Assembly (NCBI RefSeq): GCF_022045235.1
Contig: NW_027266308.1
Location: 22,072,001 to 22,136,000, forward strand
Direction of reading: 5' to 3'
DNA: 64,000 nt
DNA from: Haliotis cracherodii
Taxonomy: Eukaryota
Positions 7,160 through 55,412 of this stretch are shown one piece after another; the stretch's first letter is position 1, and each line of letters begins with the position of its first letter. The translations under genes and the position numbers were made by a program. The notes beneath the pieces are model-generated. The model searched no databases. It was not told the DNA's origin and saw only the letters and a list, made by a program, of their open reading frames with translations.

Positions 7160-8836
7160 ATTTGTATTGTGTATGTACAGATTACAGACCGTTAGTCACT
7201 GGTCAGTACACAGATGAGTGTACATATTGTGTATGTACAGATCACATACAGTCACTGGTCAGTACACAGATGAGTGTATGTATTGTGTATGTACAGATCA
7301 CAGACAGTCACTGGTCAGTACACAGATTAGTGTATGTATTGTGTATGTACAGATCACACACAGTCACTGGTCAGTACACAGATGAGTGTATGTATTGTGT
7401 ATGTACAGATCACAGACAGTCACTGGTCAGTACACAGATGAGTGTATGTACTGTGTATGTACAGATCACATACAGTCACTGGTCAGTAAACAGCTGAGTG
7501 TACATATTGTGTATCTTCAGATCACAGACAGTCACTGGTCAGTACACAGATGAGTGTACATATTGTGTATGTACAGATCACAGACAGTCACTGGTCAGTA
7601 AACAGCTGAGTGTATGTATTGTGTATGTACAGATCACAGACAGTCAGTTGCTGGTCAGTAAACAGCTGAGTATATGTATTGTGTATGTTCAGATCACAGA
7701 CAGTCACTGATCAGTAAACAGCTGAGTGTATGTATTGTGTATGTACAGGTCACAGACAGTCACTGGTCAGTAAACAGCTGAGTGTATGTATTGTGTATGT
7801 ACAGGTCACAGACAGTCAGTTTCTGGTCAGTGAACAGCTGAGTGTATGTATTGTGTATGTACAGATGACAGACAGTCAGTTGCTGGTCAGTAAACAGCTG
7901 AGTGTATGTATTGTGTATGTACAGATGACAGACAGTCACTGGTCAGTAAACAGCTGAGTATATGTATTGTGTATGTACAGATGACAGACAGTCAGTTGCT
8001 GGTCAGTAAACAGCTGAGTGTATGTATTGTGTATGTACAGATCACAGACAGTCACTGGTCAGTACACAGATGAGTGTACATATTGTGTATGTACAGATGA
8101 CAGACAGTCACTGGCCAGTAAACAGCTGAGTGTATGTATTGTGTATGTACAGATGACAGACAGTCACTGGTCAGTACACAGATGAGTGTATGTATTGTGT
8201 ATGTACAGATCACAGACAGTCACTGGTCAGTAAACAGCTGAGTATATGTATTGTGTATGTACAGATCACATACAGTCACTGGTCAGTAAACAGCTGAGTG
8301 TATGTATTGTGTATGTACAGATCACAGACAGTCAGTTGCTGGTCAATAAACAGCTGAGTATATGTATTGTGTATGTGCAGATCACAGACAGTCAGTTGCT
8401 AGTCAGTGAACAGCTGAGTATATGTATTGTGTATGTACAGATCACAGACAGTCACTGGTCAGTAAACAGCTGAGTGTATGTATTGTGTATGTACAGATCA
8501 TAGACAGTCAGTTGCTGGTCAGTAAACAGCTGAGTGTATGTATTGTGTATGTACAGATCATAGACAGTCAGTTGCTAGTCAGTAAACAGCTGAGTGTATG
8601 TATTGTGTATGTACAGATCACAGTCAGTCAGTTGCTGGTCAGTAAACAGCTGAGTGTATGTATTGTGTATGTACAGATCACAGACAGTCAGTTGCTAGTC
8701 AGTAAACAGCTGAGTGTATGTATTGTGTATGTACAGATCACAGTCAGTCAGTTGCTGGTCAGTAAACAGCTGAGTGTATGTATTGTGTATGTACAGATCA
8801 CAGACAGTCAGTTGCTGGTCAGTGAACAGCTGAGTG
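7160..8836 (+). repeat. 56/60-bp minisatellite (about 29 units) made of the OTUB1 exon-3 acceptor plus first 13 codons
   Basis: Unit tgtattgtgtatgtacag|atcacagacagtca(gttg)ctggtcagtaaacagctgagtgta; the last unit runs directly into the real exon. Confidence 0.95.
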
Positions 8837-8895
8837 TGGAGGAACTCATCGAGGAGTATGCCCAGGAAGATGAGGTTTACCGCAAGAAGTTGGAT
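8797..8895 (+). CDS. OTUB1: OTUB1 exon 3
   Basis: ITDSQLLVSEQLSVEELIEEYAQEDEVYRKKLD, similar to OTUB1 IAVQNPLVSERLELSVLYKEYAEDDNIYQQKIK; gtaagt donor; phase 0/0. Confidence 0.88.
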
Positions 8896-9102
8896 GTAAG
8901 TGGAGTTTAATGTTGATAATCAAGTGCAGGAAGTATTGGAAATCAACACAAATGTGATGAAAGTTTTGTCAGCTTTGTGGTAAAAATATATCTGAAAATA
9001 GCAACCTGACAGGGTCTGAGTTAGATATGTATAAACATTGAAAAATGCAACCTAATATGTATGTCTACCTGGACCAAGTGTGTGTGAATAAATTGAATTA
9101 TG

Positions 9103-41720: not shown

Positions 41721-42847
41721 CCATTATCAATTAATATTGATTCCTTTAATATAATATAGTAATATGGACTTTCAAATGTGGCACCTCATAATGTTTTAGT
41801 AAAGGTAGCATCTTTCTGCATCATGACATGTATGGTCATTATACCTCCATCAGTTACCTTAGTTTTTGTAGTTCGTATATACAGAGTTATATAAGAGTTA
41901 TATAATTAAGCATGCAAATAATATTATAATATCACCGACTGACTGACTATACATAAATGCTATATCAATAATATCTGCCCGAGTAAGTGGCAAATCAAGA
42001 CAAATAGATGCGCTAAATGGTTGTAAGGCAACATTAATATATATTAATATTAATATAATAATTATATATGTATATATGTATATTTGGAACATTTATCAAC
42101 TGCGTCCGTAACAAAACGTATCTCACGTGAATATACGTTATTTGGAATTTGATTCCATGGAGTTGAAGTTAGGTTTGTTAAGACGTATAATATTATTTCA
42201 TGGAATTCTAAGTCTACGGTCTACTGTCTAGTTTTATAGTTCCAAGCCATACATTAATTCCATGAAGCATTTTAGGCCAGGGTCAACCCTCGCATTCATT
42301 TGGGGACGCATTGCTTGATAAATTACAGTACCCATGGACAAATATAAGGGGTCACTTGATGAGTGAGTGAGTTGAGTTGAAAATGTGACATGGCCAAAGC
42401 ATAAGTAACAAACGACAGACCGCGAAGACAGATAAGCTTGCCATGCTTCAGCATCTCCTACAGCTGTGGGGCAGCCCTGTGCGTGCGTTTGGTTTAGCTG
42501 ATAACGATGGTTGACGGTTTCCATGTTTAAATACTTGTAGTTATTTTTATCAAACGGAGAATTCAGCGTTATTTGTCAGTCTTGTTTACACTTTTCAGTT
42601 CAATGAACTGAGACCGAAGTTTGTATAAATGGGATATTAGCAACGCCTGATCGATATTCTAGTAATAAAGGAACAATTATATTAATAATCTGTCACAATT
42701 GAAATCATATTCTGAATAGCAAACACATGGCAGCCACAACACCTACACTGTTCACAAAACAGTTGGACCGAACTCTTAACTGGTGAGCTGAATGTGATGT
42801 CCACACGCATGTGACAGGTACGTGTTAGCATTTCAATACTTCTGTTG

Positions 42848-44425
42848 TGGGTAAGGTCTCGAGAGATAAAATTCGTCACATCTGTTGCAGGTAAGGTCTT
42901 GAGAGACGCAATGTGCCACATCTATTGCAGGTAAGGTCTAGAGAGATGCTATTTGCCACATATATTGCAGGTAAGGTCTTGAGAGATGCTATTTGCCACA
43001 TTTATTGCAGGTAAGGTCTTGAGAGATGCTATTTGCCACATTTTTTGCAGGTAAGGTCTTGAGAGATGCTATTTGTCACATCTATTGCAGGTAAGGTCTT
43101 GAGAGATGCTATTTGCCACATCTATTGCAGGAAAGGTCTTGAGAGATGCTATTTGTCACACCTATTGCAGGTAAGGTCTTGAGAGACGCAATGTGCCACA
43201 TCTATTGCAGGTAAGGTCTTGAGAGATGCTATTTGCCACACCTATTGCAGGTAAGGTCTTGAGAGATGCTATTTGTCACACCTATTGCAGGTAAGGTCTT
43301 GAGAGATGCTATTTGTCACACCTATTGCAGGTAAGGTCTTGAGAGATGCTACTTGCCACATATGTTGCAGGTAAGGTCTAGAGAGATGCTATTTGTCACA
43401 TTTATTGCAGGTAAGGTCTTGAGAGATGCTCTTTGTCACATCTATTGCAGGTAAGGTCTTGAGAGACGCAAGGTGCCACATCTATTGCAGGTAAGGTCTT
43501 GAGAGATGCTATTTGCCACACCTATTGCAGGTAAGGTCTTGGGAGATGCTATCTGTCACACCTATTGCAGGTAATGTCTTGAGAGATGCTATTTGTCACA
43601 CCTATTGCAGGTAAGGTCTTGAGAGATGCTACTTGCCACATATGTTGCAGGTAAGGTCTAGAGAGATGCTATTTGTCACATTTATTGCAGGTAAGGTCTT
43701 GAGAGATGCTATTTGTCACACCTATTGCAGGTAAGGTCTTGGGAGATGATATATGCCACATCTATTGCAGGTAAAGTCTTGAGAGATGCTATTTGTCACA
43801 CCTATTGCAGGTAAGGTCTTGGGAGATGCTATCTGTCACACCTATTGCAGGTAATGTCTTGAGAGATGCTATTTGTCACACCTATTGCAGGTAAGGTCTT
43901 GAGAGATGCTACTTGCCACATATGTTGCAGGTAAGGTCTAGAGAGATGCTATTTGTCACACCTATTGCAGGTAAGGTCTTGAGAGATGCTATCTGTCACA
44001 CCTATTGCAGGTAAGGTCTTGAGAGATGCTATTTGCCACATCTATTGCAGGTAAGGTCTTGAGAGGTCCTATTTGTCACATATATTGCAGGTAAGGTCTT
44101 GAGAGATGCTATTTGTCACACCTATTGCAGGTAAGGTCTTGAGAGATGCTATATGCCACATCTATTGCAGGTAAAGTCTTGAGAGATGCTATTTGTCACA
44201 CCTATTGCAGGTAAGGTCTTGAGAGATGCTATCTGTCACACCTATTGCAGGTAAGGTCTTGAGAGATGCTATTTGCCACATCTATTGCAGGTAAGGTCTT
44301 GAGAGATGCTCTTTGTCACATCTATTGCAGGTAAGGTCTTGAGAGGTCCTATTTGTCACATATATTGCAGGTAAGGTCTTGAGAGATGATATTTGCCACA
44401 TCTGTTGCAGGTTAGGTCTTGAGAT
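42848..44425 (+). repeat. 40-bp minisatellite (39 units), each carrying TTGCAG|GTAAG
   Basis: Unit ctattgcaggtaaggtcttgagagatgctatttgtcacac; CAG ends every 40 bp from 42890 to 44410. Confidence 0.97.
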
Positions 44426-44834
44426 ATACAATTCGTTATTACACCTCTTGCAAACGGTCATGAGAGATTCAGTTCATCAGATCTCATATTTTAGGTAAGG
44501 CCTAGAGATTACTTCTTTTCTATTCTAGGTTTTATGTCCTTATTCTCTTCTTTTTTGTGAGGGTCTTGACAAAAGTCATTGTAACTCTATTTACGAGGCA
44601 AGGTTTCGTGTTTTGCCCAAACTGACAAAGGACTGAACCGGAACTTTAAAATTCAGGAAACATGTTTGCAACATGTGCTCGACAAAATCTATATTGAACT
44701 AACGGTCTAACACGTAGCCGACTGAACTATACCCCCTTCCAATATGGCACAACTTAACGAACATTTGTACTTCTCTTGTAGTCCTCAAACACAAGACCTC
44801 TTCAAAACTAGAAGTACTACGTGATATTTAAGTC

Positions 44835-44964
44835 ATGTCAGCACATAACGACTCCACTGTACACGAGACAAGTTTCACAACGTTCGGTGATGACGTTGGA
44901 AAAAAAGACGGGGGTAAGAAAACCTTCCTACCCAATATTATCACAACAAAAATACGTAGTTCTG
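44835..44964 (+). CDS. SLC46-like paralog 3, first coding exon (MSAHNDSTVHET...), two possible phase-1 donors (44913 or 44964)
   Basis: Acceptor ttctcttgtag at 44781; MSAH start shared with paralog 1; both donors join in frame to 46163. Confidence 0.7.
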
Positions 44965-45231
44965 GTGAGTTTACAGCCTTTGTAAAATCCTTATCAGAGA
45001 TTTATAAAAAGAGTTTGAATGATGTTATCTGAGAGACCAGATATTTTTTCATCTACATCTGCAAAACCCGATATTGTTTTAACTAAAACTATGAGTTTAA
45101 ATGTTTTTTTCTTTTTCTCAACAGTGAGAAGCATAGTTATTTTTTCAAAAAACCAAAAAAGTGGTCTCACATGACATTTATTGGCTAATCTGTGTGTAGT
45201 CTCATATGACATTGACCTTACACTGTGTCGT

Positions 45232-45730
45232 GGCACTATTCCAGCTATACGGCTGTAGTTTGTAAATAATTGGATCTGGACCAGACAATCCAGTGTTCGA
45301 TATTGTGAGCATCGATCCACACAGTTGGGATACGATTACATATAATCAACCAAGTAATCGAGCATGATTACCCGATCCATTTATTGACGTCCTGCGATAA
45401 GCCTAGACGGCTGCGGACCTACTTGGCATTTGCGGTTAAACTGTCTGTGGTCTTTTATGACATTTGCAGTTAAACTTTGTGTGGTCAAATAGGTTTCTCA
45501 TATTGTTGTGCTACTGAACCACTGGGAATAACTTACTTTAAGCAACCTATGGTTTTCGTTCGAGGCGACTTTATGTATGGGTTGGTCAAACTCAGTGACT
45601 TGTTTTATTGCGTGTCATCGACGGCGAGGATCGTTGCTCATGATGTCGATCACTGGTTTGTCTGAATATTTAAATGTCGCCGCCATATAAATGATGTATT
45701 CCTCAGGGCGACGTTAAAAATAAAGAAATA
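45232..45730. mobile_element. Two decayed SINE family A copies (minus 45232-45420, plus 45538-45730)
   Basis: tattccagctatac..ctggaccagacaatccagtg (minus) and agcaacc..gaggcgact..gatcactggtttgtctg..ggcgacgttaaa (plus). Confidence 0.65.
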
Positions 45731-46162
45731 ATCATACTTGTCTGTCAAAAATTCAAATAATCGATCACTTGCGAAAGATGTAGATGTAGCTGTAGGAATT
45801 TCGATTCAGAATAGGTCCCCACATATAAGAAAATATGAGCGTTGGAAAATAAAAAAACCAAAACAACCTTATACTTGTCTGCCAAAAACTTATATAAAGT
45901 TGCAAACGATCAGCGCACTCACATTAGAAAACAAGCCAAACAGCTCCACCCTGCCGTGCCGCTCTTACACCCTGTAGCGATTCTGATTCAGTATATTAGG
46001 CTCTGTAATCTGGTTGAGTGTGTGTCGTCATACCGAGTGCCTGTGTACCTGCTCCATCATTTGCACGACCACGTTATATAGATGGAATAGTTCTCCAGCC
46101 TGAAACAATTAACAAGCAAAAGTGATGTTTCACAAAATGTAGACTTGCGTTTTACGCTTCAG

Positions 46163-47224
46163 ATTATGGTAGCATAGATCGCACCGCCCCAACTCCTGGA
46201 CGACCTCGCTACGTGGCCGTGGAGGTCGTAGGACTCCTGTACTTCACCAACACCTACTATCTGATATACCACCAACAGTTCTACCTCCGCGAGAGGGCAA
46301 AGCTGGAGTATGATGTGAACCATCTCAGCGAGAGCCTCATGAATAACAGCACAGATCGAGAGAACACCATACAAGCCAAAGCTACTACTGATTTGATTCT
46401 CATAACTCTATGCCTGATCCTACCTGCTAGTTTAACTACTCTCCTGGTGGGGGGACTCTCGGACGTGTTTGGGCGGAAGATGCTAATGTATCTCTCACTA
46501 ACAGGGGCAATGATTTATTGTATCAATATGATAATTGTTGTTCGGTACAGTTTAAGCGTCTACTTCTTGTGTATAGGAGCGGTGTTACATGGATTGGGAG
46601 GTTACTTTGCAACAATGATGACAGCCTTGTTTAGCACTGTAGCGGACATCACTGAACCAGGGGATAGGAGATCATGGCGTATGATTCTGCTCTCCTTCAT
46701 CCTGTTCCTGGCCTCTGCTCTTGGAGCGTCTATTAGTGGAATCTGGATTGACAGAGCCGGCTACCTACAACCTCTGTACCTTAGTATTGCTCTCTGCATT
46801 GCATCGCTTTTTGTAGTCATAATTTTCATTCCAGAAACTCACCAGGCGGCGAAATCAAAACATGTACTGAAAGAAAATTTATCGATTATTAAACAAGGAT
46901 TTAACTTTTACTTCGCCCCGTCAAAAACTCGCACGTTAGTCGGTTTGTGCCTCATGACATTCATCACATCTTTTTCTGTGGGCTTTACGAAACAGATGAT
47001 CCTGAACCTGTTCCTGCTCACCAGCCCCTTCTTCTGGTCGACGACCCATATCACTCTGTACTCTGCCCTTAGGGTGTTGCTGTCTTGGTTCGTCATCTTA
47101 CTGACGACAGGGTGTCTCAGACGAGTCATGTCCGCCATCAGCCTGACTCTCGTTGGCGTCCTGTCAAACATCGTGTCACTTGTCCTCATCGCGACCAGCA
47201 CCAACGACCCCATGATATATATAG
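46163..47224 (+). CDS. SLC46-like MFS transporter paralog 3, large exon
   Basis: GGLSDVFGRK, VADIT, IPET, PFFW; gcttcag acceptor, ATAG|gtgaga donor. Confidence 0.92.
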
Positions 47225-47324
47225 GTGAGAGTACATGCATCTACGTACTTGTATTACATTCATCCCATACAGCAACATGGTACCCTGTCTCGTCGTATAC
47301 GAGCTCCGTGTTCTTGTCGATAGG

Positions 47325-48090
47325 ACCGCCTCCGTGGTCTAGTGGTAGAGCGTCCACCCGGAGAGCGTCAAACCAAAAGATGTTAAAAGATGGTACTTGT
47401 CGTTACCCTGTCTCGGCAATAAGGGGATAAAACAACGACTGGTGGCTCGGAGACAGTATACTGTGTCTGAGTGGGGTATTCATGTTGAACTGCGGCAACT
47501 GTTCTCAGTTGGCTAGCTATCACTATAAATCGGCATCAGTCCGGAANNNNNNNNNNNNNNNNNNNNNNNNNNNNNNNNNNNNNNNNNNNNNNNNNNNNNN
47601 NNNNNNNNNNNNNNNNNNNNNNNNNNNNNNNNNNNNNNNNNNNNNNNNNNNNNNNNNNNNNNNNNNNNNNNNNNNNNNNNNNNNNNNNNNNNNNNNNNNN
47701 NNNNNNNNNNNNNNNNNNNNNNNNNNNNNNNNNNNNNNNNNNNNGCAATGATCTTGGACGCGACGTTAAACCCAATTTTCCCCACCTCTAGTCAGGGGAG
47801 CGGAAGGTCCGTGGTTCGATCCACCGTCTGTGGCATACCAAACGACGTTTCAAAATGATACTTGTTGTAACCTTGCATTGTGCTCAGCATACAACAAGGA
47901 CTAGTCGACTTTGAATCAGTATACTTTGTCTGAGCGTGGTATTCATGACAAATTGTATCAAGCACTACAAACCGGGATACGGCCGGACTTGTACAATCAC
48001 AAGCTCGCACGCACGACCATTGCACACGCACAACTGCTTTGAAAGTGCAATAATCTTGAACACGACGTTAAATCCTAAAAAGAAACTCAC
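47325..48090 (+). mobile_element. Two tandem SINE family D copies; the first spans the assembly gap
   Basis: ccgcctccgtggtctagtggtagagcg head, accaaa..aaa(g)atg(g/a)tacttgt core and gcaat(g/a)atcttg..cgacgttaaa tail, each seen twice. Confidence 0.7.
47547..47744. other. Assembly gap (198 N)
   Basis: Run of N. Confidence 1.
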
Positions 48091-48243
48091 CTCAACTCTC
48101 GGGCTCACCACATCCTTCTACTCCAACCCACGGTCTCTTCATATTCATGAAGTGATGTATTCCTTGACGTGAAGTAGCTGATAATAGTATCACACCATGG
48201 CACTAATCTACTTCCATGTGCTAACTACAATCTTCTGTTTCAG

Positions 48244-48327
48244 CGGGTGTGGCGGGCGTATATGCCCAAGCAACAGGCCCTTTAATGAGAGGGTTTATGT
48301 CTAGTCTCGCAAGTCCTGACCAGCAAG
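48244..48327 (+). CDS. SLC46-like paralog 3, 84-nt exon
   Basis: AGVAGVYAQATGPLMRGFMSSLASPDQQG; ctgtttcag acceptor, gtaagc donor. Confidence 0.92.
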
Positions 48328-51554: not shown

Positions 51555-51711
51555 GTGCCGTGTTTTGTGTGCTTGATCTCAGCGAGATGGTCTCCACTGC
51601 AGTGTTTACAGTGGCCGGAGGTCTGATCTACGCGGCAACACTAGCGATATTTCCGGGCTTTGTATTCATTGCACTCGCTCTCATCCTACTCTTTGTTGCC
51701 GTGGCTCTGTT
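51555..51711 (+). CDS. SLC46-like paralog 3, 157-nt exon
   Basis: GAVFCVLDLSEMVSTAVFTVAGGLIYAATLAIFPGFVFIALALILLFVAVAL; gtgagt donor. Confidence 0.92.
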
Positions 51712-51729: not shown

Positions 51730-54440
51730 TGTTCTGGTAGTGACAGCACTACTGATTGTTGCCATCACGTGTTTGTTCCTCTTTGTGTGTTTGACCACAA
51801 GCCTAGCTTGTGGTAGTGGCATCTCTAGTGTGAGTAAACATAAGCCAGGTTTCTGCTTGTGGCAGATCTGGTGTGTGTAAATACAGGCCACGCTCCTGGT
51901 AGTGGCAGATCTAGTGTGAGTAAATACAGGCCACGCTCCTGGTAGTGGCAGATCTAGTGTGAGTAAACATAAGCCAGGTTTCTGCTTGTGGCAGATCTGG
52001 TGTGTGTAAATACAGGCCACACTCCTGGTCGTGGCAGATCTAGTGTGAGTAAATACAGGCCACGCTCCTGGTAGTGGCAGATCTAGTGTGAGTAAATACA
52101 GGCCACGCTCCTGGTAGTGGCAGATCTAGTGTGTGTAAATACAGGCCACGCTCCTGGTAGTCGCAGGTCTGGTGTGAGTAAATACAGGTCACGCTCCTGG
52201 TAGTGGCAGATCTGGTGTGAGTAAATACAGGCCACGCTCCTGGTAGTGGCAGATCTAGTGTGAGTAAATACAGGCCACGCTCCTGGTAGTGGCAGATCTA
52301 GTGTGTGTAAATACAGGCCACGCTCCTGGTAGTCGCAGGTCTGGTGTGAGTAAACACAGGTCACGCTCCTGGTAGTGGCAGATCTGGTGTGTGTAAATAC
52401 AGGCCACGCTCCTGGTAGTCGCAGGTCTGGTGTGAGTAAATACAGGTCACGCTCCTGGTAGTGGCAGATCTAGTGTGTGTAAATACAGGCCACGCTCCTG
52501 GTAGTTTCAGGTCTGGTGTGAGTAAATACAGGTCAGCTCTTGGAAGTGGCAGATCTTGTGTGAGTTAACACAGGCCACGCTCCTGGTAGTGGCAGATCTA
52601 GTGTGAGTAAACACAGGTCACGCTCCTGGTAGTGGCAGATCTGGTGTGTGTAAATACAGGCCACGCTCCTGGTAGTCGCAGGTCTGGTGTGAGTAAATAC
52701 AGGCCACGCTCCTGGTAGTCGCAGGTCTGGTGTGAGTAAATACAGGTCAGCTCTTGGAAGTGGCAGATCTTGTGTGAGTAAACACAGGCCACGCTCCTGG
52801 TAGTGGCAGACCTAGTGTGAGTAAACACAGGCCACGCTCCTGGTAGTGGCAGATCTAGTGTGAGTAAATACAGGTCACGCTCCTGGTAGTGGCAGATCTA
52901 GTGTGAGTAAATACAGGTCACGCTCCTGGTAGTGGCAGATCTGGTGTGTGTAAACACAGGTCACGCTCCTGGTAGTCGCAGGTCTGGTGTGAGTAAATAC
53001 AGGTCAGCTCTTGGAAGTGGCAGATCTTGTGTGAGTAAACACAGGCCACGCTCCTGGTAGTGGCAGATCTAGTGTGAGTAAATACAGGCCACGCTCCTGG
53101 TAGTGGCAGATCTGGTGTGTGTAAATACAGGCCACGCTCCTGGTAGTTTCAGGTCTGGTGTGAGTAAATACAGGTCACGCTCCTGGTAGTGGCAGATCTA
53201 GTGTGAGTAAACACAGGTCACGCTCCTGGTAGTGGCAGATCTAGTGTGAGTAAACACAGGCCACACTCCTGGTCGTGGCAGATCTAGTGTGAGTAAACAC
53301 AGGCCACGCTCCTGGTAGTGGCAGACCTAGTGTGAGTAAATACAGGCCACGCTCCTGGTAGTGGCAGATCTAGTGTGAGTAAACACAGGCCACGCTCCTG
53401 GTAGTGGCAGATCTAGTGTGAGTAAAAACACAGGTCACGCTCCTGGTAGTGGCAGATCTGGTGTGAGTAAACACAGGTCACCTCTTGGTAGTGGCAGATC
53501 TGGTGTGAGTAAACACAGGTCACCTCTTGGAAGTGGCAGATACAGGGTGGTGTGAGTAAACACAGGCCACGGTCCTGGTAGTGTCAGGCCTAGTGTGAGC
53601 AGACACAGTCCAGGCTCCTGGTAGTGACAGCACTATTGAGCGTAGCCATCACGTGTTTGTACCTCTTAGGGTGTCGTTCGTAGTAGTGGCAGCTCTAGTG
53701 TGAGTAAAGACAAGCCACGTTCCTGGTAGTGACAGCTCTAGTGTGAGCATACACAGGCCACGCTCCTGGTAGTGACAGACCTAGTGTGAGTATACACTGT
53801 CCACGATCCTGGTAGTGGCAGCTCTAGTGTGAATAAACACAGGCCACGCTCCTGGTAGTGGCAGATCTAGTGTGAGTAAACACAGGTCACGCTTCCGGTA
53901 GCGGCAGGCCTAGTGTGAGTAAACACAGGCCACACTCCTGGTAGTGACAGATCTAGTGTGTTTAAACACATACCACACTCCTGGCAGTGACAGACCTTGA
54001 GTGAGTAAACACATACCATACTCCTGGTAGTGACAGACCTTGAGTGAGTAAACACATACCACACTCCTGGTAGTGGCAGACCTAGAGTTAGTCAACACAG
54101 GCCACACTCCTGGCAGTGACAGATCTAGTGTGTTTAAACACATACCATACTCCTGGTAGTGACAGACCTTGAGGGGGTAAACACATACCACACTCCTGGT
54201 AGTGGCAGACCTAGAGTTAGTCAACACAGGCCACACTCCTGGTAGTGACAGACCTTGAGTGAGTAAACACAGGCCACACTCCTGGTAGTGGCAGACCTAG
54301 AGTTAGTCAACACAGGCCACACTCCTGGTAGTGACAGACCTTGAGTTAGTCAACACAGGCCACACTATGGTACTGACAGACCTTGAGTTAGTCAACATAG
54401 GCCACGCTTCTGGCAGCAGCAGACCTTGTGTGAGTAAACA
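51730..54440 (+). repeat. 43-bp minisatellite (about 60 units) starting just after the splice donor; most units contain GTGAGT
   Basis: Unit ctggtagtggcagatctagtgtgagtaaatacaggccacgctc. Confidence 0.95.
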
Positions 54441-55363: not shown

Positions 55364-55412
55364 CATCGCCAAACGACTCCAGGACCGCGAGGGAGACGGA
55401 AGCATAGATTAG
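55364..55412 (+). CDS. SLC46-like paralog 3, probable last exon
   Basis: ccattttcttcag acceptor; phase 2 gives (F)IAKRLQDREGDGSID*; AATAAA at 55451; an acceptor at 55329 is an alternative. Confidence 0.5.

Follow-up and report, generated by a model that had tools for sequence, protein, structure and literature searches.

A donor-bearing 40-bp minisatellite ahead of an SLC46/PCFT-like gene of Haliotis cracherodii: likely an ordinary expansion of a first-exon splice site

Introduction

Upstream of an SLC46-like gene of the abalone Haliotis cracherodii, a junction in which an acceptor-like TTGCAG is followed immediately by the donor GTAAG recurs in a long tandem array, raising the question of whether such a ladder of splice motifs serves splicing or has simply been amplified along with the repeat. 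The preliminary description of the window, i.e., the whole stretch of 64,000 nucleotides analysed (contig NW_027266308.1, positions 22,072,001 to 22,136,000 of the forward strand), read the junctions as ratchet points (zero-length exons) of recursive splicing, and named a ladder of 5′ UTRs, a U1 snRNP sponge and new-intron formation as further possibilities. We conclude that repeats of this type have been described in lancelets and humans, and that the array has likely arisen by ordinary expansion of the splice site of exon 1 rather than as a ladder of recursive sites. Among the papers found on Haliotis minisatellites and introns, and on mirage minisatellites and splicing, none concerned this locus as judged by titles or the starts of abstracts.

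The array and its host gene

The array is a minisatellite on the plus strand at 42850–44424 with a period of 40 bp, 39.4 copies and 90% matches (TRF), and the main tandem arrays together make up ~17% of the 64-kb window. A reading of its 39 full junctions found TTGCAG|G in every one, GT in 38 and the intact site CAG|GTAAG in 33. Self-identity peaks at an offset of 280 (0.941 vs. ~0.90), showing higher-order blocks of 280 bp; the units are related by duplication and are therefore not independent observations, so that the copies represent one amplified unit rather than independent motifs. ATG occurs in 35 of the 38 internal units, and the segment 42812–42910 is free of it. Paired with the U1 5′ end, the unit donor forms a duplex of −11.5 kcal/mol vs. 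−9.2 to −9.8 kcal/mol for the donors of exons 2, 3 and 4 and the site at 42818.

The first units are divergent (42831–42890, plus strand): unit 0 reads GG|GTAAGG at 42851, and the first perfect CAG|GTAAGG lies at 42891. This segment is a candidate for the 3′ end of a non-coding exon 1. Immediately upstream, a block at 42615–42830 (plus strand) is common to this gene (paralog 3) and a sister gene (paralog 4) at 71–73% identity and carries AG|GTACGT at 42818 (U1 duplex −9.8 kcal/mol); it may supply an alternative donor for exon 1 or belong to the promoter. At 42805–42835, a start–stop element (ATG TGA in paralog 3, ATG TAG in paralog 4) adjoins a conserved GTACGTGT, which could be a donor, a promoter site of bHLH/bZIP type, or both. 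On the downstream side, degenerate tail copies extend over 44425–44510 (plus strand), the last AG|GTAAGG being at 44495.

Several simple accounts of the unit were rejected. Its derivation from the 42818 donor finds no support, as the unit and that donor's context show no significant similarity (anchored score 14, P = 0.16, n = 1,206 other AG|GT sites). Masking of the donors by RNA structure is not indicated, as four units fold no better than shuffled sequences (z = −0.76). A dispersed repeat family finds no support either, the matches to the unit being at least those at the array locus and paralog 4, with none listed elsewhere.

The acceptor AG (44780–44781) of the SLC46-like gene follows the array at a distance of 357 nt, and the intron is ~1.9 kb long. 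The authentic acceptor (44752–44781, plus strand) has a CTTAAC branch-point match at −25, a pyrimidine tract and TAG, and the branch point is retained in paralog 4. It opens the first coding exon, exon 2 (44782–44913, plus strand), which is covered by RNA-type contigs and encodes residues 1–26 of P0001 from the ATG at 44835, with an in-frame TAA just upstream. Since this TAA precedes the ATG, all sequence upstream is leader; because P0001 also begins at 44835, a protein-coding array is unlikely. The other coding exons lie on the plus strand at about 46163–47224, 48244–48327, 51555–51711 and 55365–55409. The large exon contains an MFS_1 domain (Pfam, E = 4.5e-16), and its sole PDB match is the proton-coupled folate transporter PCFT (7bc6, E = 2e-17). 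P0001, an identical annotated Haliotis cracherodii protein with five coding exons from 44835, is named 'proton-coupled folate transporter-like', and by homology the host gene is a predicted SLC46/PCFT-like MFS transporter.

Much of the preliminary description thus stands, namely the 39 tandem copies every 40 bp, the near-perfect U1 site, the distance of about 360 bp to the acceptor at 44781, and the position, which is supported, within the first (5′ UTR) intron or at the 3′ end of exon 1. The form yTATTGCAG, described there for every unit, holds as the majority form and is not universal (A at −7 in 33/39 units, A at −9 in 6/39).

Elsewhere in the window, a 56-bp array at 7163–8910 runs straight into an open frame resembling a coding exon, possibly an acceptor-side counterpart of the donor arrays called mirages in amphioxus.

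Are the junctions recursive splice sites?

Zero-nucleotide ratchet points of Drosophila, as described in bioRxiv 10.1101/006163, juxtapose YAG and GT, have TT at −6/−5 in 99.5% of cases, possess a strong pyrimidine tract and cross-species conservation, and number 1–6 per intron in introns of 11.3 kb or more (11–133 kb), with segments of at least 2.6 kb. The array shares the juxtaposed YAG|GT (38/39 junctions) and the TT at −6/−5 (39/39). However, its 33–39 sites stand 40 nt apart within ~1.9 kb, far under the Drosophila range, and are decayed in the paralog; for human recursive splicing, PMC10156609 reports a broader size range. Using the minimal motif Y5+N0-4YAGGT from the latter source, a pyrimidine tract was found in 1/39 units vs. 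2/4 of the gene's own acceptors, and a yTnAy branch point at −45 to −10 in 0/39 units vs. 3/4 of those acceptors. As to step size, a spliceosomal intron probably needs more than the 40 nt of a single unit, though moves of two or more units may be long enough.

Conservation within the array was a further claim, the splice motif having been called the most invariant part of the unit. In fact, 21 of the 40 unit positions are invariant, and the longest invariant run is indeed TTGCAG|G (7 positions), for which the probability of any invariant run of 7 or more is 0.14. The donor half varies: positions +2, +3 and +5 carry four variant alleles in 6/39 units, one of them GA, by which the donor is lost. 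The 11-nt motif window shares the lowest variant count with eight other windows (permutation P = 0.12), and the splice motif as a whole does not significantly exceed the remainder of the unit in conservation. The acceptor half is invariant at 6/6 positions vs. 15/34 elsewhere (Fisher P = 0.021, post hoc and uncorrected). Units also differ from one another at −9, −10, −15 and −18. The claim is therefore borne out only partly. The preliminary description had itself regarded a motif no more conserved than other unit positions as decisive against its reading; because +2, +3 and +5 vary and the motif window gives P = 0.12, this is what is found for the donor half, the acceptor half being borderline.

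Ratchet sites are also expected to be conserved across homologs and more so than their flanks, and here only 1/4 units is intact in paralog 4. Because three defining features were tested and not found, we do not class the array as a ratchet-point system. The ratchet-point reading is thus not supported, given the single pyrimidine tract, the missing branch points, the 40-nt spacing, the short intron, the one intact copy in the paralog and a donor half without special conservation.

Transcript contigs

Transcript evidence came from X1 and X2, two runs guessed to be RNA from one study of a related abalone (~95% identical), as assembled contigs. RNA-type contigs of both runs join exon 2 to exon 3 (44913 to 46163). 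The X1 contig begins exactly at the AG, at 44780; the alignment of the X2 contig starts at 44776 and has 8 differences vs. 7 for X1, with 2 letters left unaligned. In the DNA-type run X3, the stretch 44767–44789 is identical to the window. The 8-letter tip of X2 agrees with the terminal letters of unit 0, of any of the full units or of the 44495 tail copy, and it agrees with neither the 42818 donor nor the unspliced window sequence, the agreement being derived from mismatch counts on the assumption that X2 has X1's two unlisted differences. From this one contig tip we infer that a repeat-derived donor was quite probably spliced to exon 2 at 44782. It breaks off at −8, beside the unit's most variable positions (−9 and −10), a pattern that several different donors would give.

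Each of X1 and X2 also contains one 70-nt contig whose mismatch counts agree with a perfect cycle of a single internal unit type, at a depth near that of the mRNA contig (6.9 vs. 8.7 and 3.8 vs. 4.2). X1 includes unspliced intron-2 sequence at a depth of 2.4, and nascent RNA or DNA multiplied by the copy number is therefore enough to account for these cycles; exonic internal units would likewise explain them. Among the contigs listed for X1 and X2, none covers the left boundary (units 0–1), for which the DNA-type run X3 has one, and none joins the array to the exon at 44782. The stretch 44425–44775 is without RNA cover in X1 and X2, which we do not take as proof of absence. The runs X4 and X5 of organism C gave no cover of the gene's exons. 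In organism B, a summed depth of up to 1,387 vs. 73 hints at expansion and does not represent a copy number.

Very high-copy SINE-like interspersed repeats at 45260–45340, 45574–45677 and 47324–47540 dominate contig depth in all runs.

A sister gene with one intact donor

Paralog 4 (P0002; L012, L015 and L016) is an SLC46-like gene lying inverted on the minus strand ~17–25 kb beyond the window (G000:C45, about 22153000–22161060), with 82% amino acid identity to paralog 3 over the large exon. It has the same flanks as paralog 3 from 42615 on, with AG|GTACGT present in both, and its array consists of ~4 decayed units (TRF 4.1 copies, 70%) vs. 39.4 in paralog 3. AG is kept in 4/4 of these units and GT in 1/4, leaving exactly one CAG|GTAAGG. 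The surviving single donor is what the donor-minisatellite reading predicts, as the gene would then require one donor and the remaining copies could degenerate. As far as its sequence indicates, the sister gene does not need a ladder, and it provides a natural low-copy, one-donor control for the array.

In paralog 4, no ATG occurs from −6 to +195 around the GTACGT site, and the intact donor lies at +154. The ATG-free stretch from the GTACGT site to the first intact donor, found in both paralogs, mildly favours a short exon 1 that terminates at one of the early units.

The two genes differ in other arrays too: a 43-bp array (51811–54438) has 60.7 copies in paralog 3 vs. 21.2 in paralog 4, and a 31-bp unit (48093–48148) is unexpanded in paralog 3 and present in 63.6 copies in paralog 4. 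Expansion is therefore a general habit of the locus. Further minisatellites in the neighbourhood, L018/L019 (G000:C45, about 22185786–22186430, minus strand) and L023 (1–409, minus strand), carry CAG|GTGAG and AG|GTAAAT on the minus strand.

Donor arrays elsewhere in the genome

Genome-wide, triplets of CAGGTAAG at gaps of 15–45 nt gave 1,799 matches vs. 494 for the reversed control (3.6-fold), with 11 arrays on the 89-Mb contig C1; these genome-wide figures are matches, arrays being counted only among those listed. The non-splice anagram CAGGATAG gave 1,412 matches vs. 1,528 for its own control, and CAGCTAAG triplets gave 187, ~10-fold fewer than CAGGTAAG. The fuller TTNCAGGTAAG (TTNCAG|GTAAG) gave 70 matches in 10 arrays, the studied array included, vs. 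12 for its control. Up to 79.7 Mb of C1, 9 donor-type vs. 8 anagram arrays were counted, showing no clear excess. As CAGGTAAG triplets and those of the anagram are of similar frequency, we do not claim enrichment of donor motifs among minisatellites; donor arrays are ordinary in this genome and show no clear excess over chance.

Among the first 13 listed arrays, 5 show by eye an acceptor-like site together with a short candidate exon upstream of their first unit. Pfam, applied to 150 of the 153 open frames flanking 13 other arrays, supported no exon directly adjoining an array; a weak Cupin_8 match had E = 0.15. The sole array tested by homology, L074, is a 19-bp donor array (L074 2883–3430; G000:C1, about 86091400–86091900, minus strand) at the 3′ end of a cupin/JmjC-like exon; this conserved coding exon (46 hits) ends at the first unit, and a further exon, of EF-hand type, lies past the array.

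More donor arrays with exon-like stretches in front were seen in L071, L073, L075 and L076. The L076 peptide may resemble the end of mevalonate diphosphate decarboxylase; it has 0 PDB hits, and Pfam gave no confirmation. In L068 (2789–3163; G000:C1, about 29112800–29113150, minus strand), a 43/53-bp array has a T-rich stretch before CAG|GTAAGT and is a better dual-site match than the studied array.

Proposed explanation and alternatives

We favour, with a probability of about 0.58, the reading that the array is a minisatellite amplified from a donor-bearing unit, likely at the end of a non-coding exon 1, in which one copy, probably among the most upstream, would be the real donor and the others would be carried in the 5′ UTR intron as mostly unused pseudo-donors. 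The unit at the end of exon 1 would have been duplicated before the split of paralogs 3 and 4, after which the units of paralog 4 would have decayed to one working donor and those of paralog 3 would have been amplified and homogenised. The most upstream usable donor would be chosen, by analogy with human F7 IVS7, and the remaining copies would leave with the intron, their number drifting neutrally through slippage or unequal exchange. Splicing from one unit to another would recreate an identical donor and leave no trace in the mRNA. Use of a later donor would bring ATG-bearing units into the leader (with uORFs of 22–35 codons in one example) and leave TTGCAG against exon 2. The extent of exon 1, the use of a repeat copy as donor, the precedence of the most upstream copy and the neutral drift are all conditional parts of this reading. 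Several points argue against it: a strict 'most upstream' rule would pick the 42818 site, if transcribed, to whose context the unit shows no significant similarity; exon 1 is not seen directly in the contigs listed for X1 and X2, runs that come from another organism and are guessed to be RNA; the unit cycles at mRNA-like depth and the X2 tip beside variable positions would also suit the use of internal units or of several donors; and neither the anagram control nor Pfam lends support from the other arrays.

An unlikely alternative is a stochastic array of dual sites, as in UBC, in which many internal donors would yield 5′ UTRs with variable numbers of units, each unit adding an upstream ATG, and the TTGCAG left at exon 2 would allow re-splicing to the same mRNA. 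The invariance of the acceptor half (39/39) beside a varying donor half points this way, as does the same asymmetry in paralog 4 (AG 4/4, GT 1/4). The contig tips also differ (X2 at −8 vs. X1 at −2), the internal-unit cycles are at mRNA-like depth, and the tandem dual sites of UBC do splice stochastically (PMC10809524). However, all 39 units lack a branch point, the pyrimidine tract is present in one, no listed contig joins the array to 44782, and the unspliced intron-2 sequence of X1 suffices to explain its cycle; strict first-donor use is moreover possible, as F7 demonstrates (PMC1557585). A more elaborate form, quite unlikely in our estimate, would make the array a 5′ UTR switch that erases itself: each of the ~33 donors could be joined to exon 2, leaving TTGCAG and upstream ATGs, and a second splice would remove them, so that copy number would tune the escape of a uORF-laden, poorly translated mRNA. 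If several donors are used and re-spliced, VNTR length would be linked to uORF load and transporter output; if the switch is real, it would be a natural allelic series for 3′-first recursive splicing in a short mollusc intron.

It is rather unlikely that the array is wholly intronic, with exon 1 ending at 42817 (AG|GTACGT) and the repeat donors acting as occasional leaks. The presence of this site in both paralogs, its U1 duplex of −9.8 kcal/mol in paralog 3 and the start of the X1 contig exactly at the AG, which agrees with spliced and unspliced forms branching there, are consistent with it; on the other hand, the X2 tip does not fit 42817, four ATGs lie within 42727–42811, the repeat donors are stronger (−11.5 kcal/mol), and conservation there is not clearly above that of the neighbouring intron (~70%). 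An untranscribed VNTR close to the promoter, with the start site downstream of it near 44776–44782, would agree with both RNA-type contigs ending within 8 nt of 44782, with the uncovered stretch at 44425–44775, and with array 70-mers carried over as DNA. We nevertheless consider it very unlikely, given the branch point, pyrimidine tract and YAG retained in both paralogs and an X2 tip that mismatches the genomic sequence as a spliced repeat end would. A selected ladder of ratchet points, or a U1 sponge, is highly improbable: the TT at −6/−5, a ratchet hallmark, the near-perfect U1 match and the depth-based hint of expansion in organism B, which is not a copy number, speak for it, but they are set against the spacing, the short intron, the missing pyrimidine tract and branch point, the decay to one site in the paralog, the unconserved donor half and the lack of excess over the anagram control.

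Comparison with known systems

Beside the Drosophila ratchet points, three published cases are close to the array. The human UBC and VCX3A tandem dual-specific splice sites have, like the array, one AG|GT per unit (PMC10809524), and Duan et al. propose that such sites make repeat expansions tolerable since the repeat can be spliced out (PMC10809524), a proposal that could apply to the array as well. In UBC, however, the sites lie within coding repeats and have been demonstrated as both donor and acceptor (PMC10809524), whereas the array lacks the branch point, and its X1 and X2 contigs hint at donor use and contain no acceptor use.

The 37-bp VNTR of human F7 intron 7 is similar in unit length and likewise presents identical strong 5′ splice sites to one acceptor, with only the most upstream of 5–9 identical donors used (PMC1557585). 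It differs in having 5–9 sites, a coding context and proven first-donor use (PMC1557585); the array places 33 intact sites within a 5′ UTR, with the donor choice predicted by analogy. With 33 identical strong donors facing one acceptor, and a one-donor control in paralog 4, the locus is a test bed on which the human F7 rule that the most upstream donor wins can be tested in a lophotrochozoan.

The amphioxus 'mirage' minisatellites consist of tandem exon–intron boundary units in which many AG and GT are kept and edge units escape homogenisation (PMC3087553). The array is likewise a head-to-tail minisatellite with a splice signal in its units, its edge units are divergent, and copy number differs at the level of paralogs. 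In amphioxus (Adh3 and the globins BflGb6 and BflGb9), splicing is reported as undisturbed, and new-intron formation by AG|GT duplication, one of the possibilities raised for the array, is a published idea for mirages (PMC3087553). The array has ~39 copies of 40 bp vs. 3–6 copies of 150–160 bp in BflGb6 (PMC3087553), and its host exon would be non-coding, with a boundary placed from the reading given above. Since the authentic exon–intron boundary is only hinted at, membership in this class is likely, not proven; the array is likely a donor minisatellite of the mirage or F7 IVS7 type in a 5′ UTR intron, mostly neutral. So read, it adds another donor minisatellite to a genome rich in such arrays, and it would carry the mirage pattern of amphioxus over to the 5′ UTR of a mollusc gene.
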